Positions 8,955 through 51,881 of a DNA stretch of 64,000 nucleotides are shown here, piece after piece (the stretch's first letter is position 1; every line of letters begins with the position of its first letter). Source of the DNA: a virus (taxonomy: Duplodnaviria > Heunggongvirae > Uroviricota > Caudoviricetes); IMG/VR virus record IMGVR_UViG_3300044673_000278, positions 187,694 through 251,693 of that record; one strand, 5' to 3'. Below the pieces are notes generated by a model. That model saw only the letters and a program-made list of their open reading frames with translations, had not been told where the DNA came from and ran no database searches. The position numbers were made by a program, and so were the translations under genes.

Positions 8955-9274
8955 TTGAATATGAAATGAACTTTGCTGAACCCCGGCCTGTGTTCTACAG
9001 ACTGTATCACAATGAGCAAGGTGTTCCGTTATTCTACAGCATGGAAGACTTGCCAGGTACATACATCGAAATTGACGCGGCAACATTTGCAAGGTCGCCC
9101 TCACGTGTGCGTGTGCGTGACGGTCGGCTGGTAGAGCTAACTTGGAAAACCACTGCAAGACTAGAACAAACAGATGACCGTGGAACGCCTTGCCATCCCC
9201 AAGACGTTGCCATTGTAGTCAACACCAAACAACCACACCAATGCTGGAGCAAACAAACTTATGAACAAAATTGA
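8951..9274 (+). CDS. Hypothetical protein
   Basis: Start moved to the ATG at 8951 (ATGA overlap with the upstream stop). About 107 aa. Confidence 0.4.
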
Positions 9275-10184
9275 CATCGCAGATTTAGACTGCATTTACC
9301 TAACATATGATGAACCTCAACGTGAAGAATTTTGGGTTAAAATTAAGAACATGGTGCCTTGGGCCAAACGGGTGGACGGTGTTAAAGGCAGCGATGCGGC
9401 TCACAAAGCGGCGGCCGCATCGTCGGATACAGATCGATTTATTCTCATCGATGGCGACAACATCCCCAATCCAGATTTTTTTAATCAAACGCTTGTTCTT
9501 CCTAACGAAGAATATGAGAACGCTGTGTTCCGTTGGCGAGCACGTAATCACATCAATGGACTGATGTATGGAAATGGTGGTTTATCTAGTTGGACTAAGA
9601 AGTTTGTTAATGATATGCAAACTCATGAACATTCAGATGGACGAGCGGAAACACAAGTGGAATTCTGTTTTGATCCCCTTTATTGGGCCATGCACGATTG
9701 TTTTTCTACGACCTATCCCAACGGATCGCCTTTCCAAGCCTGGCGTGCAGGGTTTCGTGAGGGTGTTAAAATGTGTCTGCAACGTGGCCGCAAGCCCACC
9801 ATCGAAGAGTTTAAGAATCAAGTTCTAAGAAACTTGGACAACTTGACTATCTGGCACAACGTGGGGTCAGACGTAGAACACGGCGAGTGGGCCATGGCTG
9901 GCGCACGCCAAGGCACATACATGACCATGCTCACAAACTGGGATCACACACAGGTACAGAACTTTGATGCCCTGGCCGAATTGTGGGAATCTGTAAAAGA
10001 TTCCAACCCACGTATTTTGTCCAATCAACTGGGCCCAGAAATTGGAACACAGTTAGCATTGCCTATGGCCATACTGGAATCAGAGCAAAGTGCATTCTTC
10101 AAACATCACTATCGATCAAATTGGCACAACCAAGGTGTCATGGTCAGAGAAATAGATGTTATTCGCAAGCTAGAAGGATGGTAA
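9261..10184 (+). CDS. GT-A-like glycosyltransferase-family protein, homologous to the C-terminal domain of the 1004-aa repeat protein
   Basis: [10 protein letters not shown] is a DxD-like motif. The segment ...[17 protein letters not shown]... closely matches ...TPWQAWRTAFREAIKLC... in ORF 26660-29674. Confidence 0.5.
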
Positions 10185-11563
10185 TGAACAAAGGCGACCA
10201 GAGCAAGTTCATGAGTTCAGCTGAACAAATGAAGCAGGATCTGGGTCCTGCTCTTTGTCTTGCCAAGTGGAAACAGGTTAGCTTTCACTTGCCTACTGGA
10301 CTCAACAACAGTTGTTACCATCCTCCACTGCATCAAATATCAGTGGAAGATCTAAAGCGCACTGGCGGCCTGCACAACACCGACCACAAGAAACAGCAAC
10401 GTAAATTGATGTTGAGTGGCCAACGCCCTAGTGAATGCCAATACTGCTGGAACATGGAAGACCTTGGGCAACTGTCTGATCGACACTACAGGTCAGGCGA
10501 ACCCTGGGCTGCTGTGGACTTTGAAAAAATTCGTAATTCAACCGGAGACGAAGATGATGTCATTCCCAGCTATGTTGAGGTTAATTTTAATAACGCTTGT
10601 AACCTTAAGTGCAGTTATTGTAGTCCCCAGTTTAGCTCTAGCTGGGGAGACGAAGCTAATCGTTATGGCGCTTATCCTACTTCCGTACCACACAATTCTC
10701 CAGAACATTTTACTGGGGCTAGACGTGTTATACCCGCTAGGGAAAGCAATCCCTACGTTGAAGCGTTTTGGCAGTGGTGGCCTACACTGTACCCGCAGCT
10801 TAGACATTTCCGAATGACCGGTGGCGAGCCACTGATGGACCGGAACACTTACAGAGTGTTTGACTATGTGTTGGCTCTTCCCAAACCTGATTTGCATTTA
10901 AATGTAACATCGAACTTTTCTGTGGAACCTGCACTGTTTGAAAAGTATTTGGACTATGTAAAACGACTGTGCAACACTCAAATTGAGCACTTCATGCAAT
11001 ACGTAAGTCTAGACTCTGGTCGTGGATTTCAAGCTGAATACATACGCCACGGTATGGATTCACAGCGTGTGGTCGGCAACGTCAATCGCTATTTGCACGA
11101 AGTTCCATATCGCAACAGCCTAACGTTTATTATCACAATGAACAACTTGAGTGTAACAGGGTTCCGCGAATACATGGAATGGATCTTGCATCTACGTAAG
11201 AGCTACTCTAAGACGTATCAACGTGTATGGTTTGACACACCTGTGCTGCGACAACCAGCCTGGCAGAGTCTGCAGATCTTGCCCGAAAGTTATGCAGCAA
11301 AATTAGAACAGTGCGCAGATTGGATGGCCACACAGGTCACTGCGGACGGGCTGCACGGCTTCCGCGATTACGAAGTACAACGTCTGCGTAGAGACATTGC
11401 ATGGATGCGTGAAGGACAAAAACAAAACAACGATACGGCCAAAGCAGACTTCTATCGTTTCTTTTCTGAACACGACCGTCGTCGAGGCACAGACTTCTTG
11501 CGTACTTTTCCTGAAATGAAAGCCTGGTGGGCAGAATGTGAGTATCATGCTAGGGCAGCATAA
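10184..11563 (+). CDS. Radical SAM enzyme, paralog 1, with an N-terminal Cys-rich twitch/SPASM-like domain
   Basis: CNLKCSYCSP is a CxxxCxxC motif and GGEPL is the SAM-binding glycine motif. The N-terminus reads C..W....TG...SCYHPP...CQYCW. Start set to the ATG at 10184 (TAATG overlap, GAAGGA SD). The ORF-track start at 9983 is an out-of-context 5' extension. Confidence 0.7.
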   Translation: MNKGDQSKFMSSAEQMKQDLGPALCLAKWKQVSFHLPTGLNNSCYHPPLHQISVEDLKRTGGLHNTDHKKQQRKLMLSGQRPSECQYCWNMEDLGQLSDRHYRSGEPWAAVDFEKIRNSTGDEDDVIPSYVEVNFNNACNLKCSYCSPQFSSSWGDEANRYGAYPTSVPHNSPEHFTGARRVIPARESNPYVEAFWQWWPTLYPQLRHFRMTGGEPLMDRNTYRVFDYVLALPKPDLHLNVTSNFSVEPALFEKYLDYVKRLCNTQIEHFMQYVSLDSGRGFQAEYIRHGMDSQRVVGNVNRYLHEVPYRNSLTFIITMNNLSVTGFREYMEWILHLRKSYSKTYQRVWFDTPVLRQPAWQSLQILPESYAAKLEQCADWMATQVTADGLHGFRDYEVQRLRRDIAWMREGQKQNNDTAKADFYRFFSEHDRRRGTDFLRTFPEMKAWWAECEYHARAA

Positions 11564-12659
11564 AATTGTTTGTGACGAATGGGCAGAAGTTTGGGATCTA
11601 CTCAAGCCCTATGCCGATGAAAGCTTCTGGCGCTGGACAGACGTTGACTTTGATCCTACAAAGATCTATATTGTAGGACGTGTGGTTCTCAAAGACAATT
11701 GGCAAGCTATTACAGACTTAGCTACTAAACACCCAGGGCGTATTGTGTTTTCAAATCCTGCCGAAGGCAGTGAAACCATACTGTTGCAGCTAAAACGTCT
11801 ACGTATCACAGAGCATGTGCGTGATGGACGCATAGGACTATTAACTTCAGGCGACTTAGAGCCTGGCTGGCACTATTGCAAAACAGACTGCTATTTTTCC
11901 AACATTGTGGAATATGATGAAAACCGGGCAGCACAAATACAGGCTGCTATGGATTACCGGCATCATCGTCCCTATCAATTTTTGTTCTTGAACGGCCGTC
12001 TACGGCCACACCGCAAATATCTAATAGATACTTTGAGAGACCTTGGACTGTTAGATCACGCACTATGGACCAATTTAGGTAGTCGTGTGGAAATGGGATT
12101 TACCTCATCGTTGACTACATTTCCAGTGGAGCCCATACGATTGTTGCCACCTGAGTATGAAATTGAACGTGCTGTACCTAACTTAACCACTGTAGAACAA
12201 CAGGGATTTGTCAAACATCAATTGTTTAACAATACCTGGGGCGATGCCATTGTAAATCCACGTTGTTACACGGACTCGTGGTTCAGTCTGGTAACAGAAA
12301 CTATTTTTGATTATCCTCATACATTCCGCACAGAAAAAATTTGGAAGCCCATACTGATGGCGCACCCTTTTGTAGTTGCTGCCAATCAGGGATACCTGCG
12401 AGACTTGCAAAACGCAGGATTTAAAACGTTTGGTCATTTAATAGATGAAAGTTACGATCAAATTGATCGCGCCGAAGTGCGAATAAGTCGTATAATAGAC
12501 ACAATGACCTGGCTGTGCAAAGATTCCAATGCTGCTGAATTCTGGGAAGCCAGCCGTGATATTTGTAAATACAATCAACAACATCTTGTGGAATACAATC
12601 GTCAACAGCGAGCTGAATTGCCACAACAACTCTTGACATATCTCAATGAACGATCTTGA
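11538..12659 (+). CDS. GT-B-like protein, paralog 1 (C-terminal Rossmann-like motif)
   Basis: C-terminal motif KPILMAHPFVVAANQGYLRDLQNAGFKTFGHLIDESYD is shared with ORFs 16857-17849, 24357-25547 and 25531-26661. Confidence 0.5.
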   Translation: MSIMLGQHKIVCDEWAEVWDLLKPYADESFWRWTDVDFDPTKIYIVGRVVLKDNWQAITDLATKHPGRIVFSNPAEGSETILLQLKRLRITEHVRDGRIGLLTSGDLEPGWHYCKTDCYFSNIVEYDENRAAQIQAAMDYRHHRPYQFLFLNGRLRPHRKYLIDTLRDLGLLDHALWTNLGSRVEMGFTSSLTTFPVEPIRLLPPEYEIERAVPNLTTVEQQGFVKHQLFNNTWGDAIVNPRCYTDSWFSLVTETIFDYPHTFRTEKIWKPILMAHPFVVAANQGYLRDLQNAGFKTFGHLIDESYDQIDRAEVRISRIIDTMTWLCKDSNAAEFWEASRDICKYNQQHLVEYNRQQRAELPQQLLTYLNERS

Positions 12660-13971
12660 ATTTCGCCGGGAAGTCCTGGACAAGTTAAGCGATAGTTTCT
12701 GTGCTGCAAAGTGGTATAATGCTACCATTTGGCTTGGTAGCGGCATGAGCACCAGCTGCCACCACCCGCCAGCTCACTTGGTGGACAAAGATAAAGTCCG
12801 GGCCAACCCTAGGCTGCTGCACAATACTCCGCAGAAAAAAGACGACCGACGCAAAATGTTGGCTGGCGAGCGCCCTGCAGGTTGCGAATACTGTTGGAAA
12901 ATCGAAGACATGGGACGCAATGCTATTTCGGACCGTGTGTACAAATCACGAATCTATCCCATAGAGGCCTTGCATGAAGCTAGAGCTACACCCGCAGATC
13001 AAGACGTCAACCTCCGTACTTTGGAAATTGCTTTCGATCGTACTTGTCAGTTTGCTTGCAGCTATTGCAACCCAGCTTTCAGTACGACATGGGTTAATGA
13101 TATTCGGCGTAACGGACCCTATAATGGTTTGGTTAGTGACGGCCGCAATCACTTCACTCACACTCATGACAGTAGTCAGCTCTATAAAATTACTGAGAGC
13201 AACCCATACATTGATGCTTTTTTCTCTTGGTGGGAGTCGGACCTACACCATACACTTCAGGAACTCAGAATCACAGGTGGAGAGCCCCTCATGTCCGGCC
13301 ACACCTGGCGACTCATTGATTGGTTCCGGGATAATCGCGGCCGTAGCCAGACTCGCTTGGCAATCAACTCAAATCTTGGTCCGCAGGTAGATATATATCG
13401 ACTGCTGGACTCTACTGAAGGCATGGATGTAGAAATCTACACTAGTCAGGAAGCAGTGGGCAAACAGGCAGAGTATATTAGAGATGGCTTGGATTACCCA
13501 CTTTGGCGTCAAAACGTCATGGCTTTGCTAGACGCGGGTCGCACTGTGCATGTTATGTGTACTATAAATGCACTGTGCTTGACTACACTGCCGCGCTTGT
13601 TGAATGAACTGGTAGAATGGAAACGCACATACGGGCGTGACCGTGTTAATTTCACTTTGAATATCCTACGCTTCCCGTCATTTCAATCGCCTTTGGTTTT
13701 ACCTGATCATTTACGTGAACAATTCAAAGGTGATTTGACACAATGGTTGGTCGATCACCGTGGCTATAGTTACATGCAAGAACACGAAATTAATCACACG
13801 CAACGATTAATAGATTATTTGGATGTTGTTAAAACTCCGCATTCAGATGCATTTGAAATGCCCAAGCTGCACAACGACTTTCGCGAGTTTTATCGACAGT
13901 ACGATCAACGCCGCGGACGAGATTTTGCTGAGTATTTCCCCGAATTAAAAGAATGGTATCAATCATTATGA
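12646..13971 (+). CDS. Radical SAM enzyme, paralog 2
   Basis: CQFACSYCNP (CxxxCxxC) and GGEPL motifs. N-terminal CAAKWYNATIWLGSGMSTSCHHPP...CEYCW. Confidence 0.7.
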   Translation: MNDLEFRREVLDKLSDSFCAAKWYNATIWLGSGMSTSCHHPPAHLVDKDKVRANPRLLHNTPQKKDDRRKMLAGERPAGCEYCWKIEDMGRNAISDRVYKSRIYPIEALHEARATPADQDVNLRTLEIAFDRTCQFACSYCNPAFSTTWVNDIRRNGPYNGLVSDGRNHFTHTHDSSQLYKITESNPYIDAFFSWWESDLHHTLQELRITGGEPLMSGHTWRLIDWFRDNRGRSQTRLAINSNLGPQVDIYRLLDSTEGMDVEIYTSQEAVGKQAEYIRDGLDYPLWRQNVMALLDAGRTVHVMCTINALCLTTLPRLLNELVEWKRTYGRDRVNFTLNILRFPSFQSPLVLPDHLREQFKGDLTQWLVDHRGYSYMQEHEINHTQRLIDYLDVVKTPHSDAFEMPKLHNDFREFYRQYDQRRGRDFAEYFPELKEWYQSL

Positions 13972-15650
13972 CTGTAGAACACACATTACAACATCTGCGC
14001 CAACAATATAATGTTGTAGCCGAAATTGATTTGAATTTTTGGAACGACAGTTATGAACAAAGTGTGGAAACTCTGATTCAAAAACTGCAACAAGCACATG
14101 CCCCTGCCTACACCGACAATCAACGCATTGTGTTTATACATCAACACGACTACTATGTTGGCCGCAGCACGGTTGGATTGATCTTAAAAAACATTCAAAT
14201 TCAATTGAACGAAGTTGATATCAGCAATTATTTTGCCATAGTGGTCAGCACTGCTGAAGATATCAGTGAGCAAATAAAGTCTCTTAAAGAAATCAGCACA
14301 GATTCTGTACCTGTGGGATTTGAATCAGCAGCAGGTGCTTTTGTTCGACATCAATTGGATCGCCATCCCTACAGCAGAAAAGAAGAATATCAATATGGAT
14401 CCAGCAATCCTATAAAAATTGACGTGAATGAATTGACTGACCGTGAACGTTTTTTGCTGACAGAAAGCCGGACATTTTGCATTTATCCTTGGATACACAT
14501 ACACGCTTATCCCACAGGCGAAGCCTATCCTTGCTGTCACGCTGAAATGAAGCCCGGTGTAGTGGGCAATTGTCGCACACAGACCTTGGAGGAAATATGG
14601 CAAGGGGAACCCATGCAGCGTCTGCGCGACGACATGCTAAACGAACGTGAACATCCTGCATGCACACGTTGTTACGAACAGGAAGCATCGGGGTTCTTTA
14701 GTGGTCGTAGATCTGCCAACAAGCATCACGGGCATCACATAAAGAAATTAGAAGAGAATCCGTTTGAATTAACGTATTGGGATATTCGATTCTCCAACCT
14801 TTGTAATCTACGTTGCCGCAGTTGCGGTCACATCTTCAGTAGCCAGTGGTATCAAGATCAAGCAAAACTAGCAGGACCAGAATGGAAACTCAATAATTCA
14901 GTGTTGAACTATGCTGGACGCACAGAAACGGACATGTGGCAACAGCTGGAACCACATCTTGATTATGTAGAACAAATTTACTTTGCCGGCGGCGAACCAC
15001 TGCTCATGGAAGAGCACTACAATATTCTAGAAGAATTAGTACGCCGTGGGCGCACAGATGTGCGATTGATCTACAACACCAATTTTACACACACCGACCT
15101 AAAAGGACGCAGTGTATTTGAATATTGGAAACAATTCAAGAGTGTGGCAGTGGGCGCTAGCCTAGACGACATGGGCAGTCGTGGGGAATACATTAGAAAA
15201 GGCACTGCATGGGGACAGGTTGAAAAGAATCGCGAAGACATGCTGCGAATTTGTCCCGAGGTAGACTTTTACATTAGCCCTACGCTGAGCATAATGAACG
15301 CACGTCATTTGCCCAAGTTTCATCGTGTGTGGGTCGAAAAGGGCCTAATTCGTGCGCAGGACTTGAATGTAAACATCCTACAAGATCCTGCACATTATAG
15401 AATTGACATTGCTACCCCAGAATACAAAGCAGAACTAACTGGCCTGTATCAACAACACGTAGCATGGTTGAAATCTGTAGGAGATCCGTTGGGCCGAGCC
15501 ACGCAGGGATTTGAATCCGCGATCACATTTATGAACGCCACAGACAACAGCCATTTGATTCCCAAGTTCTGGGAAAAAACCAATCAATTGGATGCTATTA
15601 GAAATGAAAGCTGCTTGGATATTATTCCCGAGCTAGGAGCCTTGAAATGA
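13968..15650 (+). CDS. Radical SAM enzyme, paralog 3 (longer N-terminal extension)
   Basis: CNLRCRSCGH and GGEPL motifs. N-terminal CIYPWIHIHAYPTGEAYPCCHAE...CTRCYEQE. Start set to the ATG at 13968 overlapping the upstream TGA (ATGA); the first in-frame ATG at 13953 is an alternative. Confidence 0.65.
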   Translation: MTVEHTLQHLRQQYNVVAEIDLNFWNDSYEQSVETLIQKLQQAHAPAYTDNQRIVFIHQHDYYVGRSTVGLILKNIQIQLNEVDISNYFAIVVSTAEDISEQIKSLKEISTDSVPVGFESAAGAFVRHQLDRHPYSRKEEYQYGSSNPIKIDVNELTDRERFLLTESRTFCIYPWIHIHAYPTGEAYPCCHAEMKPGVVGNCRTQTLEEIWQGEPMQRLRDDMLNEREHPACTRCYEQEASGFFSGRRSANKHHGHHIKKLEENPFELTYWDIRFSNLCNLRCRSCGHIFSSQWYQDQAKLAGPEWKLNNSVLNYAGRTETDMWQQLEPHLDYVEQIYFAGGEPLLMEEHYNILEELVRRGRTDVRLIYNTNFTHTDLKGRSVFEYWKQFKSVAVGASLDDMGSRGEYIRKGTAWGQVEKNREDMLRICPEVDFYISPTLSIMNARHLPKFHRVWVEKGLIRAQDLNVNILQDPAHYRIDIATPEYKAELTGLYQQHVAWLKSVGDPLGRATQGFESAITFMNATDNSHLIPKFWEKTNQLDAIRNESCLDIIPELGALK

Positions 15651-16864
15651 ACCTACCGCACGATAAATTTTGCGTATTACCGTGGATCAGCTTGGAAGCG
15701 TCGCCTATTGGCACAGTGCGCCCATGCTGCTTGGCCGATGACGAGATTTTAGATAATCAAGGCAACAAGTTTAGTCTACTCACTGCTGACTTCTCAGACA
15801 TACAAAACAGCGATAATATGCGCAGTCTAAGACAGCAATTTCTTGCCGGAGAGAAACCACAGACTTGTAGAAAATGCTGGAACGAAGAACGTGCAGGTCG
15901 TACATCAAAGCGTATGCATACCTTGGACAGACTCAAGCATGTGATTGGCAACACTGAGTGGACTGAGGATGCCAAACCCCTGATGTTCTTGGACTTGAAG
16001 CTGGGCAACATCTGCAACCTAAAATGCCGTATCTGCGGATCGTGGAGCTCTAGTCAGTTTGCCACAGAAGAAATCAATGACGCTCCACCAGAAGAAAAGA
16101 AGCATACATATGCTTATCAAATGTTACGTGCTGGTGCCTGGCCCAGAGAAAATCAACAGTTCTGGCAACAAATTGATCAACACTTAAATGATATTCGTTA
16201 CATTGAATTCACTGGTGGCGAGCCTTTTATGATCCGGGAACATTTCGCTATGTTGCAAGGCATTGTGGATCGTGGCATTGCTCATCAAGTTGAAATTCAT
16301 TACAACACCAATGGTACCATTTTCCCCGAAGAAGCCGAACACATTTGGAAGCATTTTAAAACAGTGGAAGTCGCATTCAGTATCGATGATGTAGGTGAAC
16401 GTTTTGAATATCAGCGAAGCAATGCTGTGTGGACAGAAGTGTGTGCTAACTTGGATCGTTTCCGTGATCTCAAAGAGATTTATCCCAATATTGTGCTGCA
16501 AGTATGCACCACAGTGAATGTGTTTAATGTTCGCTATTTGGATCAAGTAGCACATTGGATATACCGCAATCGAGAAAGCTTTAATTTTGTGTATTGGAAC
16601 ATGATGCACGATGCTTGGTATTTCTCCATTGCTACCTTGCCAGACACGGCAAAGCAAGCCATTGCTGACCACTTGCAAACAGCAGACATTCCTGCTGTGT
16701 ATCGAGAAGAAATCAATCGCATCATTGATTTTATGAATCGCGGTGCATCAACGGACGGATTTATGACACGCATGAAAATTCGTGACTTGGATCGCAAGCG
16801 CCAGCAAAACTTGGCCACTGTGGCTCCGGAATTTGCTGCACTGATTGAATACAGTTATGAGTAA
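15647..16864 (+). CDS. Radical SAM enzyme, paralog 4
   Basis: CNLKCRICGS and GGEPF motifs. N-terminal CVLPWISLEASPIGTVRPCC...CRKCWNEE. ATGA overlap with the upstream gene. Confidence 0.7.
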   Translation: MNLPHDKFCVLPWISLEASPIGTVRPCCLADDEILDNQGNKFSLLTADFSDIQNSDNMRSLRQQFLAGEKPQTCRKCWNEERAGRTSKRMHTLDRLKHVIGNTEWTEDAKPLMFLDLKLGNICNLKCRICGSWSSSQFATEEINDAPPEEKKHTYAYQMLRAGAWPRENQQFWQQIDQHLNDIRYIEFTGGEPFMIREHFAMLQGIVDRGIAHQVEIHYNTNGTIFPEEAEHIWKHFKTVEVAFSIDDVGERFEYQRSNAVWTEVCANLDRFRDLKEIYPNIVLQVCTTVNVFNVRYLDQVAHWIYRNRESFNFVYWNMMHDAWYFSIATLPDTAKQAIADHLQTADIPAVYREEINRIIDFMNRGASTDGFMTRMKIRDLDRKRQQNLATVAPEFAALIEYSYE

Positions 16865-17849
16865 AATCCGTTTCATTTACCAGCAAGGCAATTATCCCTG
16901 TTTTATAAACGGGGATATTCAGCGCATTGTTGAATCCTGGTACGACATTGAAGTGTATGATCCTGCCAAAACATACAATCCTCAGGACACTGTGATTCTA
17001 ATAACTCATGTAGAAGAAGTAGAAACAAGAAATAGCACTGGATGGTTTACCCCTTTTGAACAAGCTGGATTTAGAGTGGTAGTAGATCATTTGTGGGATA
17101 GCGATGTTGACACACCCAGCATGATCAAAAATGGTCGTTTAATTCTACGCAACGGTAATTGGGTTTGGTATAGAGAATGTATCAGATTCATTGAGCAAGG
17201 CTATCATACATATGAACCGCAAAGGAATTACAGTCATGCGTTCTTTATGCCCATGCACAAAACACGCTGGCACAGAGATCAAGCACAGGAACGACTGGCG
17301 CCTGTTTTGCAACACGCTTTATGGAGCTATGTTGAAAAAGGCATTCTTGTAGAAGGAGATGTAGATCATTCTACTCCTAGCAATATCTTTTGGGAATTCT
17401 ATGTCAATCCTGAGTGGTACAACAGTACATTTTTCAGTGTGGTATCTGAAAGTTACATGAGATCTGACCGGTGGGTTCAAAGTCCTTTTGTACCTAACTA
17501 TAGAACAGAAGTCAGTGAAAAGTTATTCAAGCCCTGTATGTTTTATCACCCCATGGTAGTGTATGGTTCATTGGGCACACTGGAATATCTGCACCGCGAA
17601 GGTTTTGAAACTTTTAGCAATCTCTGGGACGAAAGTTATGACACTGTGCCCACAGACCAGCAGCGCCACGATGTAGTGACCAAATTGATTCTGGACAATG
17701 TTGATAGATTTTTGCGAGGAGATCTTGGTATAGATTCGCTGACTCAACAAAAGCTCGAACACAATCACGCTAGAATATTTGACCACAACCTAGTGCTGCA
17801 AAGATTTGAACGTGAGATCATTGGTGACCTGCAAAGGTTCTTGGGATGA
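16857..17849 (+). CDS. GT-B-like protein, paralog 2
   Basis: C-terminal FKPCMFYHPMVVYGSLGTLEYLHREGFETFSNLWDESYD motif. First ATG at 16857 overlaps the upstream stop; the ORF-track start at 16845 is a TTG. Confidence 0.5.
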   Translation: MSKIRFIYQQGNYPCFINGDIQRIVESWYDIEVYDPAKTYNPQDTVILITHVEEVETRNSTGWFTPFEQAGFRVVVDHLWDSDVDTPSMIKNGRLILRNGNWVWYRECIRFIEQGYHTYEPQRNYSHAFFMPMHKTRWHRDQAQERLAPVLQHALWSYVEKGILVEGDVDHSTPSNIFWEFYVNPEWYNSTFFSVVSESYMRSDRWVQSPFVPNYRTEVSEKLFKPCMFYHPMVVYGSLGTLEYLHREGFETFSNLWDESYDTVPTDQQRHDVVTKLILDNVDRFLRGDLGIDSLTQQKLEHNHARIFDHNLVLQRFEREIIGDLQRFLG

Positions 17850-18448
17850 AACGAGTCTACGTCTGCGGTGATAGCTTTTGTGTGCCTGATCCTGACTACG
17901 GACCGTGCTGGGTTGATTATTTGGCGCAGCATAGATCTGTACATAATCTGGCACAGGTAGCAGCCACCAATTTAATGATTAGCATGCAAGTGGATCGTGC
18001 CATTGCAGAATCAGCTGATTTTGTTATAGTGCAAGGCACAGCATGCACTCGCAGTCAAACACGATATCAGGGCAAAATTGTACCCTACAGTTACCACACA
18101 GCCAGCGAAACAACCACTCCGTTTGACCGCACCAAACTCAGTGTACTCAAGCACTATTATGTTGAATTTTTTGATTTAGACTTGGCTATCTATGAGAATA
18201 AATGTATAATTGAAAATACCCTGCAGAAATTAGTCGACAGAGGTATTGATTTTTTGTTCGATCAAGGTGGATTCGAACATGCTAGCTTTGGCGGCGCCAC
18301 TGAGTATTTTACACAATACAGTCAATATCGCAGTGCAGTAAATCTGTGGGACCATGCACATACACGAGATTATAGGCCTTACTATCACATTGTAGATGAT
18401 GCTGTGCATCGCTCAGTGGCTGAATATTATACAAGGAAAACACAATGA
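17846..18448 (+). CDS. SGNH/GDSL-family hydrolase-like protein
   Basis: N-terminal VYVCGDSFCVP is a GDSx block I with the nucleophile Ser. 200 aa. Confidence 0.45.
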   Translation: MKRVYVCGDSFCVPDPDYGPCWVDYLAQHRSVHNLAQVAATNLMISMQVDRAIAESADFVIVQGTACTRSQTRYQGKIVPYSYHTASETTTPFDRTKLSVLKHYYVEFFDLDLAIYENKCIIENTLQKLVDRGIDFLFDQGGFEHASFGGATEYFTQYSQYRSAVNLWDHAHTRDYRPYYHIVDDAVHRSVAEYYTRKTQ

Positions 18449-19410
18449 AAAAAATTCTAGTGTGTGGCGCCGGGGGATTTATTGGTACCCATTTGGTTCG
18501 CAGTTTGCGAGCACAAGGCCATTATGTCATAGGTGCAGATCTGCACAGGCCTGAATTTAGTGCCACTGACGCCAACGAATTTCACATTGTGGATCTTCGC
18601 AACCAGCGACAAGTAACACGGCTAATCACAGCAGACATAGACGAAATATATCAGTTGGCAGCAGACATGGGCGGCGCAGGCTATATTTTCACAGGCAACA
18701 ATGATGCTGAAATCATGCACAATTCGGCTATCATTAATTTGAACATCCTACACGAAATGGTGTTTAAGAAAATCGAGAAGATCTTTTACAGTTCCAGTGC
18801 CTGCATTTATCCTGCATACAATCAAGAAGATCCTGACAATCCTGTAATGAGTGAGGAATCGGCCTACCCAGCAGCGCCCGATTCAGAATATGGATGGGAA
18901 AAGTTATTCAGTGAACGGTTGTATGCTACATTTGCTCGCAATCACGGCATAGATGTACGCATTGCAAGATTGCACAATGTATTTGGCCCAGAGTCGGCTT
19001 GGACTGGCGGCAGAGAAAAAGCACCTGCTGCACTGTGTCGCAAGGTAGCGCAGTGCGACAATCAAGGTATTATTGACGTTTGGGGCCCAGGCACACAAAC
19101 TCGTAGTTTCTTATATATAGATGAATGTATAGAAGGTATTCATAGACTTATGGCCAGTGATCATACACAGCCTATCAATATTGGTAGCAAAAGAATGATC
19201 AGCATAAATCAATTGGTGTTTTTAATTGCCGACCTGGCCAACAAGTCAGTGTCTATACGTAACATAGATGGGCCACGTGGCGTAATGGGACGCACCAGCG
19301 ATAATACTTTGATACAACAAGTCCTGGGGTGGGAACCACCGGACAACTTAGAACACGGATTAACGCAACTATACAATTGGATCAGTGAACAAATTTATGC
19401 AAAAGCCTGA
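18445..19410 (+). CDS. GDP-mannose 3,5-epimerase-like NAD-dependent epimerase (extended SDR)
   Basis: GAGGFIGTHL Rossmann motif, YSSSACIYP and a YGWEK catalytic YxxxK. The strings WTGGREKAPAALCRKV and TRSFLYIDECIEG are near-identical to plant GDP-mannose 3,5-epimerase. Confidence 0.75.
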   Translation: MKKILVCGAGGFIGTHLVRSLRAQGHYVIGADLHRPEFSATDANEFHIVDLRNQRQVTRLITADIDEIYQLAADMGGAGYIFTGNNDAEIMHNSAIINLNILHEMVFKKIEKIFYSSSACIYPAYNQEDPDNPVMSEESAYPAAPDSEYGWEKLFSERLYATFARNHGIDVRIARLHNVFGPESAWTGGREKAPAALCRKVAQCDNQGIIDVWGPGTQTRSFLYIDECIEGIHRLMASDHTQPINIGSKRMISINQLVFLIADLANKSVSIRNIDGPRGVMGRTSDNTLIQQVLGWEPPDNLEHGLTQLYNWISEQIYAKA

Positions 19411-20695
19411 CACACTGTGCCTAGCACCTTGGACACACACATATCTCAGTCCACAAACGGAGCGTAGAATGTGCTGTGCCAGTCGCGAGCCAGCACAGAA
19501 TTTTGAACAGTACATTGATACATCTGCTGGCACCGGGCGGTATATTCCGCTGACATTGGAACAGCACTGGAATTCAGAGCACATGCGAAGTGTACGCCGA
19601 AGAATGATGGCCGGAGAAACCTTGCCTGAGTGCGATGTGTGCAACAACAAACTGTTAAATACCTCAGTATATCGAGATTACTTTGGTCACCTCTTTGGAC
19701 ACAAACTAGATGAAGTCTACGCAACAACTACCGCTGACGGTTATACAACCATGGAGCCTGTGTCCTGGGACTATAGGTTCAGTAATCTCTGCAACTTTAA
19801 ATGTAGAACTTGCGGGGACATGCTCAGTTCTGCGTGGGAAAGCGAAGAGAAAACTCATGACATGGTTAATTGGGCAAATCCTAGTAATAACTGGATGCGC
19901 AGTGATGTTAGGCAGCAAATATCACAGTTTCAGGATACACAGATTGAGCAAGAATTCTCTGATGCTGTGGAACAGCATCGAGTAGAAGAAGTCTACTGGG
20001 TAGGCGGCGAACCCTTGATGTATGAACAACATTGGCGTTATATGAAACGCATTGTTGAATTAGGAGACGGAGGACGACTATATGCCAGGTACAACACTAA
20101 TCTCAGCAGGATTAGTTATCGCGGCTGTGACTTATATCGTGATCTGCTGGTACATGTACGCGACTGGCAAATTTGCGCCAGTATTGACGGAACAGGAACA
20201 ATCGGAGAGTACATACGTACTGGTCTGGACTATGGGGTTTTTCTAAAGAACTTCGAAGCTGGTGTGGCCGTACAAAAAAATCGTCGACAGATGAGATTGG
20301 ATTTTACGTTGACGCTGCCGGGCATGTTTGAAGTCAATGCAATACAACAGCTTGCTCGCACATACGATGTAGAGCTATTGGCCAAAGTGATCTTTAGTTT
20401 TACCCCAGATATTGCAATGAGTCCATTGGCTTTGCCCAGGCAGCTATTAGACGACTGGGTTGATGAGTTGGTACCCGAATGTACATCAGGGGCCATGCGC
20501 GATGTTCTACTACAGTTAAAGAATCGTCCTACGTTTGAACAACAATGGCCCGATCAATATCGTGCAGGGCTTGCAAAAGGCAAAGCTCGTGTGTTAAAAT
20601 TAGAAAGCATACGCACACAGTCAATAACCATGGGGGAAATATTGGCTCAGCGTCCAGAAGTATTGAAATGGTGGAACGAAATTGAACCCAATTGA
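19385..20695 (+). CDS. Radical SAM enzyme, paralog 5
   Basis: CNFKCRTCGD and GGEPL motifs. N-terminal CLAPWTHTYLSPQTERRMCC...CDVCNNK. Confidence 0.7.
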   Translation: MNKFMQKPDTLCLAPWTHTYLSPQTERRMCCASREPAQNFEQYIDTSAGTGRYIPLTLEQHWNSEHMRSVRRRMMAGETLPECDVCNNKLLNTSVYRDYFGHLFGHKLDEVYATTTADGYTTMEPVSWDYRFSNLCNFKCRTCGDMLSSAWESEEKTHDMVNWANPSNNWMRSDVRQQISQFQDTQIEQEFSDAVEQHRVEEVYWVGGEPLMYEQHWRYMKRIVELGDGGRLYARYNTNLSRISYRGCDLYRDLLVHVRDWQICASIDGTGTIGEYIRTGLDYGVFLKNFEAGVAVQKNRRQMRLDFTLTLPGMFEVNAIQQLARTYDVELLAKVIFSFTPDIAMSPLALPRQLLDDWVDELVPECTSGAMRDVLLQLKNRPTFEQQWPDQYRAGLAKGKARVLKLESIRTQSITMGEILAQRPEVLKWWNEIEPN

Positions 20696-21728
20696 AATGG
20701 ATCTCCGATCGGAGTCGGGCAATATATTAACTGTTTACATAGATGTAGCACACAACAGTCTAAGCCGCAAATGGGTCACAGCACTAAAGGAGTTAGTGGA
20801 AAATGATTACCATTTGGAAAAGAATTATTGCTGGTTTGGCTGGACTCAAAGCCGACGCAACGCCGAATACCTATGCGGATCCATTAACAGTAGTATCAAT
20901 GCTATTAATAGAGCTAACCTGGGTTATCGCATTGATTGCCCTAGTTACACAGTTTCTAACACAATAAAAGATGACTTGGATATCAATCATGAGCGCATGA
21001 ATTGGTTGCATCGATATTTTGAAGATCTGCAGGGTGTGTCGGGTAGAATGAGTCCCTACTACGAAGCAGCTGATGCAGAAACACGCTGGCATATACGCCA
21101 ACTCAATTTGTTGTGCCATGAATACGAAAGCCTGGTGCTGAGCATGCGCAAAGACGTACAGGCACCTGAGTGGAAAAGACCCAGTCAGCTGATGTGCTGG
21201 TTGCATGCACCGCGCTTTGAGTTGGATGAAGAAGACCACGAACTGTTTGGTATTGAAACCATTAATCGCAGCCTGGGTGGTGTGTATGTGGGGGTAAACA
21301 AAGCAGTAGGTAAACATCACTGGGAAGTATTCAATGATGAAGGTCGAGACAGTCGCATTGATGAACTAGTGACTACCACACTCAAAACTCAAACTGAAGC
21401 AGCAGGGGACTTTGACATTGAATGGGCTCGTGATCCGGGTGCATATCATTGGCAACAAGTAAAATTGCGAGAATTTCGCCAATGGCTGCTGGACAACGGT
21501 TTTGATCCCGACGACAAAAGTCTAACCATTGGACACCCCAAGGTTGCGCAGGTAGATCTTTTACGCAGTTTTGGCACAGAAGACTACCAACAAATCTGGA
21601 GCTTGTTGGCACAACACCTAGATGTATATAAAATCCGTGTAGACGGCTGCGAAGCTACATACAACTATAACTGGAGTGATCCAGATTATATGCAGCAGCA
21701 AGTGGCTGCAATCAAACAAGGAAAATAA
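20682..21728 (+). CDS. Hypothetical protein (348 aa)
   Basis: ORF with overlapping start inside the island. No recognisable motif. Confidence 0.45.
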   Translation: MNPIEMDLRSESGNILTVYIDVAHNSLSRKWVTALKELVENDYHLEKNYCWFGWTQSRRNAEYLCGSINSSINAINRANLGYRIDCPSYTVSNTIKDDLDINHERMNWLHRYFEDLQGVSGRMSPYYEAADAETRWHIRQLNLLCHEYESLVLSMRKDVQAPEWKRPSQLMCWLHAPRFELDEEDHELFGIETINRSLGGVYVGVNKAVGKHHWEVFNDEGRDSRIDELVTTTLKTQTEAAGDFDIEWARDPGAYHWQQVKLREFRQWLLDNGFDPDDKSLTIGHPKVAQVDLLRSFGTEDYQQIWSLLAQHLDVYKIRVDGCEATYNYNWSDPDYMQQQVAAIKQGK

Positions 21729-21827: not shown

Positions 21828-23306
21828 ATGAACATTCTTGGTATTTCAGCAGGATTTCATGATGCTGCCATTGCTGTACTCAGTGACTCTGGCGAAATAA
21901 GATTTGCCAGCCACAGCGAACGCTATAGCAAAAACAAGCATGACACAGACCTATGTGATGCTATCCTAGATGACATTGATCAGTACACCATAGGGCAGAT
22001 TGCATACTACGAACGTCCTTGGGCACGACAGTTGCGACAGCTATGGGCTGGTCAAGGCGTAGACTGGAATCAACTCACTGTGAAAGAAATTGTGCGCCAG
22101 CAAACTGGCTCAAGATTTCGCGGTGTAAAAGCTCGCGGATACAATCATCATCTATGCCATGCAGCCGCAGGGTTTCAAACATCGCCTTATAATCGTGCCA
22201 CAGTTGTTGTAATCGATGCCATTGGCGAATGGGACACAATAACAATATGGGGAGCAGAATATGATTCAAAAGGTCGTGCGCAGTATAAAAAACTTTGGAG
22301 TCGCGGTTACCCGCATTCAATTGGACTCTTCTACAGTGCAGCTACTAGCCGCGTTGGCCTACGCCCACTAGACGAAGAATACATACTCATGGGCATGGCC
22401 GCCTATGGTGAACGTGGATTCGGCAGTCTCATGCGTCAAGACCTTGTGGCTGATGCTTGGGAAATTGAGTTCAAGCAAAACCTGCACATGGGACTGGAGC
22501 AGAAGTATCTCAGTTATGTGGCGGACATGGACATTGCCGCTGGCGCACAAGATTTAGCCGAAGATCTCATCATGAATGTCATGCGTAGAGCTCGAGCATT
22601 TGGCTGGAGCAACAACCTTGTGTACATGGGCGGTGTTGCACTGAATTGCAGTGCCAATAGGAGGTTAGGTGAGTGTTTTGATAACATATGGATTATGCCT
22701 TGTCCTGGTGATGCTGGCTCTAGCCTGGGCGCCGCCGCACTGGCTTACGGTAGTAGGATTAATTGGCACGATGCTTTTCTGGGCCATGATATTAGAGGCC
22801 CTTACCCTGTTAATGCCATTCTGGACGAGCTTGTGTCTAATCGTATCGTTGGTGTTGCTAGTGGCCGTGCTGAGTTCGGTCCGCGAGCGTTAGGCAACAG
22901 AAGTTTATTAGCGGACCCTAGAGGTCCAGAAATCAAGGATCAAGTAAATGCAATCAAACGTAGACAAAAATTCCGACCCTTTGCCCCAGTTATTTTGGAG
23001 GAACTGGTTGATCATTACTTTGACATGCCTCGCAATTGGGATCGTAGTAGGTATATGCAAGTCGTCGCTACTTGTAGGCGTCCTGACTTATTTCCTGCTA
23101 TCGTTCACGCTGACGGGACTAGTCGTGTACAGACTGTGCCAAAAGATGGATCGGGAATACGAGAACTGCTTGAAAAATGGTATGTAATGACTGACTGCCC
23201 CATGCTGCTGAACACCAGCTTGAACATACGCGGTGAGCCTATGGTCAATGATCGATTAGACGCAGATAGATTTGAAAAGTTATACGGTGTACGAGTATGC
23301 AGTTAA
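21828..23306 (+). CDS. Carbamoyltransferase (NodU/CmcH/TobZ family)
   Basis: N-terminal MNILGISAGFHDAAIAVL is the Kae1/YgjD-like ASKHA motif of O-carbamoyltransferases. 492 aa. Confidence 0.7.
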   Translation: MNILGISAGFHDAAIAVLSDSGEIRFASHSERYSKNKHDTDLCDAILDDIDQYTIGQIAYYERPWARQLRQLWAGQGVDWNQLTVKEIVRQQTGSRFRGVKARGYNHHLCHAAAGFQTSPYNRATVVVIDAIGEWDTITIWGAEYDSKGRAQYKKLWSRGYPHSIGLFYSAATSRVGLRPLDEEYILMGMAAYGERGFGSLMRQDLVADAWEIEFKQNLHMGLEQKYLSYVADMDIAAGAQDLAEDLIMNVMRRARAFGWSNNLVYMGGVALNCSANRRLGECFDNIWIMPCPGDAGSSLGAAALAYGSRINWHDAFLGHDIRGPYPVNAILDELVSNRIVGVASGRAEFGPRALGNRSLLADPRGPEIKDQVNAIKRRQKFRPFAPVILEELVDHYFDMPRNWDRSRYMQVVATCRRPDLFPAIVHADGTSRVQTVPKDGSGIRELLEKWYVMTDCPMLLNTSLNIRGEPMVNDRLDADRFEKLYGVRVCS

Positions 23307-23309: not shown

Positions 23310-23336
23310 AAAAGCCCCGACAGGGGCTTTGTTGTT
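23310..23336. terminator. Bidirectional intrinsic terminator between convergent genes
   Basis: Hairpin aaagccccgacaggggcttt flanked by A-rich and T-rich tracts. Confidence 0.6.
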
Positions 23337-24385
23337 TATAGATAAGTTTCTAAACCTCCACGACGACGGATATCCTGTGTGCAACAAGATATACCGCCGT
23401 CCCAGAAGTAGCTGTGACGCAACTCACTTATAATCGGATTGATCCGATGCTGCTTACAGTAATCAAACACCTGCTTGTTGTAGGCGCTGAAGATTACATT
23501 CTCTTCGTCTAGCACAAGACAGTTTACATCAAACACTGTCTCAGCCACAAATCCTGTCCATTTGGTTAGATATGTGTTCACAAAGTCTGTGAACTCTGGG
23601 GTAGGAGTTTGACCTTGCACATACCATGCACCGGGGCTGGATTCATATTTGAACTTGCCCACTTCCATGGCAGCCCAGATTGAACTATCCCAAATCTTGC
23701 ACACATCCCAGCCCGGGAAATCCTTGGCCAAGTCCAAGTTAACATCGTGCTTGCTACTGAGCAGCACGCCGGGCTTGAGTATGGCAAACACAGCATCACC
23801 GTGGCCGTCTGTGACAGCTTCGTGTATGCGATATTCCGGACCCAGCACATTGTCTACAATCCAACGTGTCTGCTCGGGCTTTAGGAAATCCGAATTGTCA
23901 AAAAACACATCACGGCCCACACGCACAATGCAACTGGCGCTGGCACCATTTAGGATACAATCAGGATCCCATTGGCTGCGATGTGGATTGACCACTGTGG
24001 CACCTTGACCAGCATAGTCATTGCAAATAGTGTCTAGTTCGGGCATGTTGAGCACACGCAACAGTTTGTCACCCAGTGTAATTTGCCAGTCACGTGGAGT
24101 CAGTGGGGGCAACGGCGCACCGCCACCTTCGGTTTGAAACCATACAAATTGATCTTTGTTGGGCAAATCAGGTCTACGAACAGTGGCACCGTAGCGTTGA
24201 ATAGTCTTGGCCAAGTTGTCAAGGTCTTCTTCGGTTTCTGCTAGGATCTGTTGCAGTTGGTTACGCACCTGCGGATTGTCGATGAAATCAAAATAATCAG
24301 GTGAGTAGGCGCGGCCTACAATTACTTCTTCCAGTGGTTGCCACGATGTATAACTGTTAACGATATTGCTCATGTATTTTCTCAA
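23336..24385 (-). CDS. Pentein-fold amidinotransferase/DDAH-like enzyme
   Basis: C-terminal FWDGGISCCTQDIRRRG resembles the catalytic-Cys motif (GGGxHCxT) of the amidinotransferase/arginine-deiminase superfamily. TDGHGD is a candidate His/Asp site. Confidence 0.45.
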   Translation of the reverse strand: MRKYMSNIVNSYTSWQPLEEVIVGRAYSPDYFDFIDNPQVRNQLQQILAETEEDLDNLAKTIQRYGATVRRPDLPNKDQFVWFQTEGGGAPLPPLTPRDWQITLGDKLLRVLNMPELDTICNDYAGQGATVVNPHRSQWDPDCILNGASASCIVRVGRDVFFDNSDFLKPEQTRWIVDNVLGPEYRIHEAVTDGHGDAVFAILKPGVLLSSKHDVNLDLAKDFPGWDVCKIWDSSIWAAMEVGKFKYESSPGAWYVQGQTPTPEFTDFVNTYLTKWTGFVAETVFDVNCLVLDEENVIFSAYNKQVFDYCKQHRINPIISELRHSYFWDGGISCCTQDIRRRGGLETYL

Positions 24386-36450: not shown

Positions 36451-36547
36451 ATCAAAGAACTCCAGTAGAAAAAAGGAAAAAACAAACCGCAAAGCCCAGT
36501 GCAAAATACAAGGGCCTCAGCCAAAAATCGTTAATCATAACAGTCCT

Positions 36548-38702: not shown

Positions 38703-38726
38703 GTCAGTCCTTTGTGTCAATGTGTT

Positions 38727-51875: not shown

Positions 51876-51881
51876 TTATCA

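Follow-up and report, generated by a model that had tools for sequence, protein, structure and literature searches.

Five radical SAM paralogues in a giant phage

The window analyzed here (64,000 nt, positions 187,694 to 251,693 of IMG/VR record IMGVR_UViG_3300044673_000278) belongs to an uncultured giant phage: 33 tRNA genes were counted in it, virion and tail-fibre PHROG matches lie upstream of the radical SAM (rSAM) genes described below, and 157 IMG/VR contigs, the largest of 349 kb, are related to it. Related-locus counts were taken over 45 jumbo-phage loci with fully covered flanks. Five ORFs on the plus strand encode the rSAM paralogues A (10184..11563, 459 aa), B (12646..13971, 441 aa), C (13968..15650, 560 aa), D (15647..16864, 405 aa; the paralogue chosen for the structure model), and E (19385..20695, 436 aa from a GTG at 19385). 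Their translations carry the radical-SAM cluster motifs CNLKCSYC, CQFACSYC, CNLRCRSC, CNLKCRIC, and CNFKCRTC, and all five contain GGEP(L/F) as well as an N-terminal module C-x2-(P/K)W ... (P/S)C(C) ... CxxC. When the five proteins were aligned, the positions C25, W29, C44, C85, C88, C139, C143, C146, and G213-P216 (A numbering) were invariant, as were R434, P443, and E444 near the C-terminus, and the C-terminal region common to the five proteins is therefore confirmed. The coordinates, motifs, and shared C-terminal region of the original prediction thus hold in both translations and alignment. The N-terminal module had been described as C-x2-(P)W-x9-12-G-x3-(P)C(C)...C-x2-C; it is present in all five proteins, with the corrections that E lacks the Gly of the G-x3-PC element and that D has a W-to-G spacing of 8 residues.

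The paralogues fall into subtypes. A and B (30% identical) are of the "CSYC / R-x-TGGEPLM" subtype and have one Cys at the second ligand position, in contrast to the CC pair of C, D, and E; C belongs to a "CRxCG / FAGGEPL" subtype and has an additional N-terminal extension of about 165 aa. Each of the five paralogues has an orthologue in 45 of the 45 related loci, and the five genes keep the same order in all 45, with median identities of 71-76% (71% for A, 76% for C). The N-terminal Cys (four or five per module) and the CxxxCxxC Cys are 100% conserved in some 60 distinct orthologues per paralogue: C25, C44, C85, C88, C139, C143, and C146 of A are kept in 59/59 orthologues, and every N-terminal and cluster Cys of B is likewise kept. 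Loss of the N-terminal Cys in orthologues, which the original prediction had named as evidence against itself, was thus not seen. Paralogue E has an alternative ATG start at 19397, and metagenome gene callers use 19469, giving a 408-aa version without the first Cys. Because this residue, Cys12, is kept in 62/62 orthologous reading frames, the longer ORF (GTG 19385 or ATG 19397) is favoured over the 408-aa call.

An N-terminal twitch domain in a catalogued family

Pfam SPASM (PF13186) matches lie ahead of Radical_SAM in D (residues 9-78), C (171-236, followed by Radical_SAM at 274-431), and E (12-87); in A, Radical_SAM covers residues 133-334. With a profile covering 105 N-terminal residues, the only match in the PDB was BtrN, over its twitch region 164-240, and the four invariant N-terminal Cys of the family align with Cys of that region. 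Both results agree with the prediction of rSAM enzymes carrying the first half of a SPASM domain at the N-terminus, and in the five proteins the predicted twitch precedes, rather than follows, the radical-SAM [4Fe-4S] site (CxxxCxxC, GGEP). Twitch is the name for a truncated form of the SPASM domain that holds one cluster (PMC9012708). BtrN, the butirosin 2-deoxy-scyllo-inosamine dehydrogenase (PDB 4M7T/4M7S), is the archetypal twitch enzyme; it acts on a sugar-like substrate, and four Cys ligate its single auxiliary [4Fe-4S] cluster, for which a role as electron acceptor has been proposed (PMC9012708). Across the family the N-terminal module keeps no more than four Cys, and these four would supply all ligands of one auxiliary [4Fe-4S] cluster, in the manner of BtrN. 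In contrast, SPASM enzymes such as anSME, PqqE, AlbA, MftC, SuiB, and CteB have a C-terminal domain with two clusters and a seven-Cys motif, of which the phage proteins show the first-half Cys pattern only, at the N-terminus. The tetraether lipid synthase GDGT-MAS/Tes (PDB 7TOM) has an extra rubredoxin domain, a C-terminal cluster domain, and a lipid substrate; membership of the five proteins in this group was rejected (22 bits in NCBIfam against a cut-off of 450).

In the NCBIfam search all five proteins matched NF033640 (N_Twi_rSAM, twitch domain-containing radical SAM protein) over their full length with 272-390 bits, above the cut-off of 170 bits: A with 310 bits (residues 23-448), B with 288.5 (15-438), C with 389.8 (167-557), and E with 271.6 (9-415). 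These end-to-end matches to one family HMM (E = 1e-80 to 1e-116) indicate a shared architecture far beyond chance. This catalogued family, of which the five ORFs are separate, non-redundant members, comprises at least 5,640 clusters at 50% identity (E <= 1e-30). Its members share with the phage proteins the order of twitch, radical-SAM core, and conserved C-terminal region, as well as the four N-terminal Cys, and show no structural difference from them. The architecture is therefore not new, contrary to the suggestion that an N-terminal twitch would be unusual; the five proteins are new members of a curated family. It is not a well-characterized family with a single function, the other finding that would have spoken against the original prediction: we found no literature on NF033640 function, including a demonstrated reaction of any member.

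Five-fold paralogy had also been considered unusual, yet tandem arrays are typical of NF033640 in bacteria and phages, bacterial loci have up to 8 copies, and fused two- and three-domain rSAM proteins occur. One fused protein (P0121) contains a B-like half. Elsewhere a single 868-aa protein joins D-like and E-like halves, which we count toward the five enzymes working together. Among cultured jumbo vibriophages (K566/K567, VS1/VS2, KVP40, phi-pp2), clusters have 3 or 4 copies instead of 5, at 21-27% identity to the five phage proteins. In Vibrio phage K566 four clustered proteins match the five-paralogue profile and share the N-terminal Cys pattern; the "MoaA/NifB/PqqE family" proteins of KVP40 and phi-pp2 gave target TM-scores of 0.69-0.74 against the model of paralogue D; and in Vibrio phage VS1 an "LPS heptosyltransferase" is listed beside the radical SAM genes (PMC10473537). 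BLASTP of the carbamoyltransferase and other island partners in the window against 12 K566 CDS (E <= 1e-3) gave no match. The five paralogues are 21-30% identical to one another and 51-62% identical to other database clusters, and are old, distinct subfamilies. Five different steps therefore fit better than one repeated step, and the "iterative" chemistry first proposed is not favoured.

The surrounding gene island

The rSAM genes are embedded in an island of conserved and variable partners. On the plus strand, a 307-aa protein with a D-x-D-like "LIDGDN" motif (9261..10184) has a stop codon that overlaps the start of A; it is conserved in 42/45 loci (median identity 75%) and has no match in Pfam, NCBIfam, PADLOC, or PDB sequences. 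Between A and B lies a GT-B-fold glycosyltransferase-like gene (11538..12659, +, 373 aa; 44/45 loci, family HMM score 480), paralogous to a more variable family member at 16845..17849 (+, 334 aa; BLASTP E 1e-14), from whose model its GT-B fold is predicted. Two variable ORFs follow on the same strand. The first (17846..18448, 200 aa, 4/45 loci) has no family match in Pfam, NCBIfam, or PADLOC; its N-terminal "VCGDSF" motif, read from the sequence, is possibly that of an SGNH/GDSL-type esterase. The second (18445..19410, 5/45 loci) encodes an NAD-dependent sugar-nucleotide epimerase/reductase (SDR) of the variable cassette (Pfam Epimerase E 5.6e-42, GDP_Man_Dehyd E 7e-23), whose top NCBIfam match, GDP-L-fucose synthase, is under its cut-off (114 bits against 500). 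A 348-aa conserved partner (20682..21728, +) overlaps the end of E and is found in 45/45 loci at a median identity of 69%, with no match in Pfam, NCBIfam, PHROGs, PADLOC, or PDB sequences. Next to it is a NodU/CmcH-type carbamoyltransferase (21828..23306, +; Carbam_trans_N E 1.9e-35, Carbam_trans_C E 6.3e-47), with the same frequency and median identity.

The highest conservation in the island belongs to a 349-aa ORF on the minus strand (23336..24385; 38/45 loci, median identity 86%), whose sole match is PHROG 25854 (no function assigned). Also on the minus strand are a third and a fourth GT-B-like paralogue (24357..25547, 396 aa, 42/45 loci; 25531..26661, 376 aa, 39/45 loci), both with homology in the C-terminal half to the HMM of the 11538/16845 family (E 1.1e-25 over profile positions 140-348, and E 9.2e-28). 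A 1004-aa protein (26660..29674, +) without a Pfam, PHROG, or PADLOC match contains a second copy of the 9261-type domain (family HMM, residues 778-936, E 4.7e-8). At the far end of the island in the window are a DegT/DnrJ/EryC1-type sugar aminotransferase (30292..31407, -; PF01041 E 1.3e-61) and a second NAD-dependent sugar-nucleotide SDR, an epimerase/dehydratase (31352..32323, -; Epimerase E 4.6e-43, GDP_Man_Dehyd E 5.4e-33, RmlD_sub_bind E 3.4e-25). The fixed core consists of the five rSAM genes, the carbamoyltransferase, two conserved proteins, and the four GT-B-fold glycosyltransferase-like paralogues, while the sugar-nucleotide enzyme cassette is variable (SDR epimerases here; kinase and nucleotidyltransferase genes in relatives).

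An island of glycosyltransferases in a phage could act on nucleotides or on the phage DNA: rSAM chemistry of the viperin, MoaA, or QueE kind would modify nucleotides, and the GT-B proteins would glycosylate the modified bases like T4 beta-glucosyltransferase, so that host restriction is evaded. Within the PDB, the radical-SAM core indeed matches viperin, BlsE, and MoaA best, in sequence and in fold, and these have nucleotide- or nucleoside-linked substrates; weak pVip matches occur in PADLOC, and a ThyX gene (32676-33368) marks the island edge. However, the viperin scores (19-33 bits against a cut-off of 180) cover only the shared core, ThyX is an ordinary thymidylate synthase, and the ORFs scanned include neither a dNMP hydroxymethylase nor DpdA, a nucleotide kinase, or a 7-deazaguanine pathway gene. 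T4 BGT shows a sequence identity of 4%, fucosyltransferases one of 10-12%, and four GT-B paralogues, DegT, two SDRs, and a carbamoyltransferase resemble oligosaccharide assembly rather than base glucosylation. We regard a role in DNA modification as very improbable.

Discussion

The original prediction named a sugar or a peptide as substrate. The genomic context and the fusions of GT2 glycosyltransferase domains to family members elsewhere (P0193, P0180) point to carbohydrate tailoring over peptide maturation. The carbamoyltransferase in 45/45 loci, the two SDRs, and DegT count toward this link; related loci contain PfkB kinase, cytidylyltransferase-like, and cupin genes, and GT1/GT4, GT2, epimerases, and GDSL proteins occur next to bacterial family members (GDSL-like in 4/127). 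Against it, the commonest bacterial neighbour is a PhyH-type dioxygenase (9/127) and not a glycosyltransferase, and some family members are fused to protein-binding TPR or Sel1 repeats. The phage partner families were not found beside bacterial members. Moreover, the rSAM genes are invariant and most recognizable sugar-nucleotide genes are variable (SDR 5/45, GDSL-like 4/45), a pattern also compatible with a conserved substrate other than a sugar, for instance a protein.

The five enzymes might accordingly be maturases that oxidize, crosslink, or epimerize a conserved phage protein, for example a virion component, or a small precursor peptide, with the glycosyltransferases acting independently on the same protein. 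BtrN and MoaA aside, most characterized SPASM/twitch enzymes use peptides or proteins (PMC9012708), and the 86%-identity protein at 23336-24385, the TPR and Sel1 fusions, and the constancy of the rSAM core all suit such a role. The matches to NCBIfam models of sactipeptide, ranthipeptide, and other peptide maturases are weak, though, at 15-31 bits against cut-offs of 340-850. SPASM enzymes usually have an RRE and a peptide substrate, whereas no RRE/PqqD or other peptide-binding domain was detected in the five phage proteins; a brief look found no precursor-like small ORF, and the 107-118-aa ORF at 8918-9274 has no Cys/Ser/Thr-rich core. In addition, family members are directly fused to GT2 domains, and the auxiliary domain matches BtrN, a dehydrogenase of a carbohydrate-like aminocyclitol, and no peptide maturase. 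This leaves the maturase reading a rather low chance of being correct, and of the two proposed substrates the sugar is the one that the context favours.

For carbohydrate tailoring we propose the following scheme. Each enzyme would cleave SAM to form a 5'-deoxyadenosyl radical, which would take H from one particular carbon, either of a nucleotide sugar or of a glycan under construction, with the N-terminal cluster as a possible electron conduit. The outcome would be five different tailoring steps (oxidation yielding a keto sugar, epimerization, deoxygenation, or C-C bond formation), after which the glycosyltransferases and the O-carbamoyltransferase would build and decorate the product. The glycan acceptor is most probably a virion protein, because virion/tail-fibre-like genes are immediately upstream and the ORFs scanned showed no genes for lipid-carrier priming, a flippase, or a polymerase; this is the weakest part of the proposal.

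The same tailoring could serve a product off the virion, either host surface polysaccharide or LPS remodelled during infection (superinfection exclusion, receptor masking) or a soluble glycosylated and carbamoylated small molecule. NodU/CmcH-type carbamoyltransferases occur in Nod factor and antibiotic pathways; bacterial family members adjoin GT1/GT4, GT2, ABC transporters, methyltransferases, and PhyH dioxygenases, a setting like that of polysaccharide or natural-product loci, and the variable sugar cassette recalls O-antigen-type diversity. Such a destination nevertheless appears quite unlikely: Wzx, Wzy, WecA, WbaP-type, and transporter genes were not found among the island ORFs scanned, and the virion/tail-fibre-like genes adjoin the island. 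As a whole, five NF033640 enzymes with a predicted twitch cluster in a carbohydrate-tailoring island, probably with a virion protein as acceptor, make up the best explanation, in which our confidence is somewhat better than even. What the phage locus adds to NF033640 is a fixed set of five subfamilies, accompanied by a carbamoyltransferase and by GT-B-like partners, in a widespread clade of jumbo phages.

Five radical SAM proteins with an N-terminal twitch domain

The original prediction placed five paralogous radical SAM enzymes on the plus strand, encoded by ORFs A (10184-11563), B (12646-13971), C (13968-15650), D (15647-16864) and E (19385-20695), with CxxxCxxC and GGEP(L/F) motifs and a common C-terminal region, and we confirmed all of these features in the translations. 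The radical SAM motif reads CNLKCSYC in A, CQFACSYC in B, CNLRCRSC in C, CNLKCRIC in D and CNFKCRTC in E, GGEP(L/F) is present in each protein, and the shared C-terminal region ends in R-x8-PE. The N-terminal module has the form C-x2-(P/K)W ... (P/S)C(C) ... CxxC. Its predicted details held in part: the Gly of the 'G-x3-PC' element is missing in E while the rest of the module is present, the W-to-G spacing of D falls one residue short of the original description, and C(C) is a single Cys in A and B and a CC pair in C, D and E. When the five proteins were aligned, the invariant columns included (A numbering) C25, W29, C44, C85, C88, C139, C143, C146 and G213-P216; CxxxCxxC and GGE(P) are invariant in the five paralogues and in all orthologues. 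A-E belong to the NCBIfam family NF033640 (N_Twi_rSAM), 'twitch domain-containing radical SAM protein', with scores of 310, 288.5, 389.8, 346.7 and 271.6 bits, respectively (curated cut-off 170 bits), over positions 3-397, 1-398, 1-395, 2-397 and 2-388 of the 398-position model. Because this single family model is matched end to end by each protein (E 1e-80 to 1e-116), the pattern they share is not a product of chance.

SPASM and twitch domains have been defined as C-terminal extensions, the twitch being a truncated SPASM with one cluster (PMC9012708). BtrN is the enzyme for which the twitch was defined; in the BtrN-type arrangement the domain follows a partial TIM barrel, whereas in all five of A-E it is N-terminal. 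Pfam SPASM was found at residues 171-236 of C, 9-78 of D and 12-87 of E, each time ahead of the Radical_SAM match, and the same order is seen in the alignments A1, A4 and A7. We built a profile of the N-terminal ~105 residues from 25 diverse family members (alignment A7) and compared it with all PDB sequences. One protein was matched, BtrN (4m7t/4m7s); the match is weak (E 0.0025-0.0028, over BtrN residues 164-240), and the four invariant family Cys align on Cys of this twitch segment. SPASM domains, which hold two auxiliary clusters, carry a seven-Cys motif (CX2CX5CX3C plus a final Cys) that is absent from A-E; these keep the first-half Cys only, and beyond C...(C)C...CxxC the alignments and orthologues contain no more family-wide conserved Cys in the N-terminal module. 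Judged by sequence, the module is thus predicted to be the first half of SPASM, i.e., a twitch domain placed N-terminally, and the Pfam positions and the BtrN match bear out the structural reading first proposed. The architecture is not new, since the curated name of NF033640 already states it; it has been catalogued, and A-E add members to a known family.

An AlphaFold2 model of D is confident (pLDDT 92.6, pTM 0.90, from a 59-sequence alignment), and ~200 of its 405 residues align with solved structures, corresponding to the generic radical SAM core. No solved structure of an NF033640 member was found among the PDB sequence and fold matches, and literature searches on the family name, on N-terminal SPASM/twitch domains and on twitch plus sugar found no characterized member, the sole relevant result being Tes. 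An N-terminal auxiliary [4Fe-4S] domain has a solved precedent in Tes (PMC9433317), but the Tes architecture differs from that of A-E, which score far below the Tes family threshold.

Public metagenome annotations start E at 19469, 28 codons downstream (408 aa), a start that leaves out the first Cys ligand of the twitch domain. The retention of this Cys in 62 of 62 orthologous reading frames supports the longer ORF as the correct one, with GTG 19385 or ATG 19397 as its candidate start; the 28 codons ahead of 19469 are likewise conserved in all 62. The longer start overlaps the end of an SDR gene (18445-19410). In C, the first ~165 aa (13968-14460) form an N-terminal extension without a family match. 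The C orthologues of some related loci lack it (ORFs of ~420 aa), and proteins of 530-570 aa similar to C recur in the database. Since residues 7-55 of C weakly match family profile positions 323-372, the extension could be what is left of a fused upstream copy.

Multi-copy arrays in bacteria and phages

The five-paralogue profile was scored against 1.84 billion cluster representatives and matched at least 5,640 proteins at E ≤ 1e-30 (counted as clusters at 50% identity) and 11,209 at E ≤ 1e-10. Many of the top matches are 800-1,400 residues long and contain the complete unit two or three times. The cellular genomes with family members are MAGs of Bacteroidota, Bdellovibrionota, Elusimicrobiota, Acidobacteriota and Myxococcota, often with the genes in tandem: a Bacteriovoracaceae contig has eight copies within 12 kb, and one Elusimicrobia MAG has four to seven copies in several contigs. 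The cultured Vibrio phage K566 carries four clustered members, not the three annotated, because its CDS VPHK566_0308 (14445-15707 of the fetched locus L163, reverse strand; 'hypothetical protein') matches the five-paralogue profile at E 8e-27, including the N-terminal Cys pattern. The 'MoaA/NifB/PqqE family' proteins of phages KVP40 and phi-pp2 match the D model structurally. Five-fold paralogy had been considered unusual for a phage locus; with arrays of up to eight in bacteria, four in K566 and fused copies in single proteins, multi-copy arrays are the normal state of NF033640 and not peculiar to this locus.

Natural fusions among the database representatives (P0123, P0193, P0180, P0251, P0256 and P0233) join D-like to E-like units, radical SAM to GT2 in either order, radical SAM to TPR, and Sel1 to radical SAM; the GT2-type glycosyltransferase domains occur in the multi-domain members P0193 and P0180. 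The D-like and E-like halves are fused in a protein of 868 residues, which suggests that D and E may act in one pathway or complex.

Conservation of the five genes in a jumbo phage lineage

The window is part of an uncultured jumbo phage. When the locus and stretches of 40-64 kb were compared by megablast with 50,697 deposited phage genomes, only tRNA and ATPase fragments matched, and no close relative was found. Relatives of D at >80% identity number thousands in metagenomes, and we collected 157 related IMG/VR contigs of up to 349 kb. The five genes recur in the same order across 85 fetched loci, each with its own orthologue group (median identity 71-76%), and none of the five is missing from any of the 45 loci whose 10-kb flanks are complete; some relatives have additional copies of greater divergence, up to eight or nine. 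A-E are old, separate subfamilies and not recent duplicates, because they are 21-30% identical to one another and 51-62% identical to other database clusters. They fall into two subtypes: A and B have 'CSYC', 'R-x-TGGEPL' and the single Cys, while C, D and E have 'CRxCG' and the CC pair and are found by Pfam SPASM. Literature searches for phage-borne radical SAM genes yielded no relevant paper, and the 'moraphage' paper on aquatic jumbo phages leaves radical SAM genes unmentioned (PMC12619734).

Two contigs of 148 and 183 kb from the 'Haliscomenobacter sp. EUL_031' MAG (NZ_JBBAKG010000003.1 and NZ_JBBAKG010000001.1; loci L086 and L087) carry the complete five-gene module with phage-specific partners at 78-80% identity. 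Probably both are phage genomes that ended up in the MAG bin, either through contamination or as a hint at a Saprospiraceae host.

Downstream of the island (~9.2-32.3 kb), the reverse strand encodes an SPFH/Band 7 protein (35656-36504), a DUF2201 metallopeptidase-VWA protein (37425-38738) near a MoxR-like AAA ATPase (40845-41930), a TctC-like binding protein (43406-44314) and a T4-type RNA ligase (45265-46203). At 50001-52000 the GC content dips to 0.37 (~0.46 elsewhere), overlapping a reverse-strand ORF of 386 aa (50446-51606) without a Pfam match. Also on the reverse strand, 53644-63067 holds 33 tRNA genes that cover most amino acids, with duplicates of Phe-gaa, Pro-ggg, Lys-ttt and Ile-gat (two each) and an Ile-tat call.

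Partner genes in the island

The most constant partners, each in 45 of 45 loci, are a NodU/CmcH-type carbamoyltransferase (21828-23306) and a protein without family assignment (20682-21728). A GT-B-like protein (11538-12659) is found in 44 loci, a second unassigned protein (9261-10184) in 42, and three reverse-strand genes follow, for two GT-B-like paralogues (24357-25547, 42/45; 25531-26661, 39/45) and another unassigned protein (23336-24385, 38/45). Other genes are variable or flanking: the SDR sugar-nucleotide epimerase/reductase at 18445-19410 occurs in 5 of 45 loci, an ORF of 200 aa that carries a GDS motif occurs in 4 of 45, a second SDR and a DegT aminotransferase are also present, and relatives of the locus carry PfkB kinase, cytidylyltransferase-like, cupin and methyltransferase genes. 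For the proteins at 9261 and 20682, none of Pfam, NCBIfam, PADLOC and the PDB profile search gave a match. A plus-strand ORF of 1004 aa (26660-29674) has no database family match, and its residues 778-936 are homologous to the 9261-10184 protein. Membership of a defence system was considered and rejected, the pVip matches being weak and confined to the core.

ORFs 11538-12659 and 16845-17849 are paralogues, and an HMM of the family they form extends to 24357-25547 and 25531-26661. Structure modeling of 16845-17849 predicts the two-Rossmann-domain GT-B fold, which by homology would apply to all four (ORFs 11538, 16845, 24357 and 25531). These candidate GT10-like glycosyltransferases have no Pfam, NCBIfam or PDB-sequence match; an 'FS-V-E ... 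TEK' element may resemble the fucosyltransferase motif. A homologue search returned 502 proteins, and 120 of the 120 listed are unnamed or 'hypothetical', without a Pfam domain. Among 127 neighbors of bacterial family members there are five GT1/GT4, three GT2, four GDSL, two epimerase and nine PhyH dioxygenase genes; HMMs of the phage partners found nothing beside bacterial members and matched only in the two phage-like 'Haliscomenobacter' contigs. In the vibriophage VS1 a heptosyltransferase is listed beside the radical SAM genes (PMC10473537). The GT2 fusions, the bacterial neighbors and the VS1 gene each connect NF033640 with glycosyl transfer independently.

A possible glycan-tailoring pathway

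We tentatively propose, at clearly less than even chances, that the fixed five subfamilies, the carbamoyltransferase, the two conserved proteins and the four GT-B-like enzymes constitute a self-contained phage pathway that builds a heavily radical-tailored, carbamoylated glycan (or an unusual higher-carbon/deoxy sugar) on virions, in a clade of aquatic jumbo phages that is very abundant. In the mechanism that we consider most likely for the five enzymes, each of A-E would generate a 5'-deoxyadenosyl radical and take hydrogen from a sugar carbon. In BtrN the auxiliary cluster is ligated by four Cys, has a very low potential and has been proposed as the electron acceptor in a two-electron oxidation (PMC9012708); the N-terminal [4Fe-4S] cluster of A-E could likewise act as electron acceptor or donor. 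Together the enzymes would tailor nucleotide sugars or the growing glycan in five different reactions; the GT-B-like enzymes would then assemble the glycan, with O-carbamoylation to follow.

Proteins and peptides are the usual substrates of SPASM/twitch enzymes, TPR and Sel1 fusions exist in the family, and the radical SAM genes are core where the sugar genes vary, all of which would fit protein or peptide maturases. We regard this as unlikely: A-E contain no RRE/PqqD or other peptide-recognition domain (Pfam and NCBIfam, E ≤ 0.01), the models of peptide maturases give 15-31 bits where their cut-offs are 340-850, a limited search recognized no precursor-like ORF, family members are fused to GT2, and the auxiliary domain matches BtrN only. 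Modification of nucleotides or DNA by the island is improbable. One GT-B-like protein has a fold match to T4 BGT, the core of A-E is similar to viperin, BlsE and MoaA, and a ThyX gene lies nearby (32676-33368, reverse strand), but viperin_w_prok (NCBIfam) scores 19-33.5 bits against a cut-off of 180, the PADLOC pVip matches reach 19-37 bits and are limited to the core, and the ORFs scanned include neither a hydroxymethylase nor a deazaguanine gene.

For the proposed glycan pathway, the choice of acceptor is the weakest step. Virion proteins are favored because the island abuts virion- and tail fibre-like genes (PHROG families of both kinds match upstream of it) and because no lipid-carrier, flippase or polymerase genes occur among the ORFs scanned. 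The same carbohydrate chemistry with the host envelope or a small molecule as its target seems to us a rather slim prospect.

NF033640 is a large, named family for which neither a demonstrated reaction nor a solved structure was found. The phage clade offers a clean handle on it, with five subfamilies always together beside a fixed carbamoyltransferase and GT-B-like partners, and this fixed set with defined partners would make it a promising place to start biochemical work; natural sequence variants in the thousands and distant counterparts in cultured vibriophages should aid such study. Should sugars prove to be the substrates, carbohydrate biochemistry would gain several new radical reactions from the island, and phage biology a phage-encoded form of glycan tailoring. 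A virion-glycan pathway, if true, would give NF033640 its first function, with the N-terminal twitch cluster as an electron conduit.
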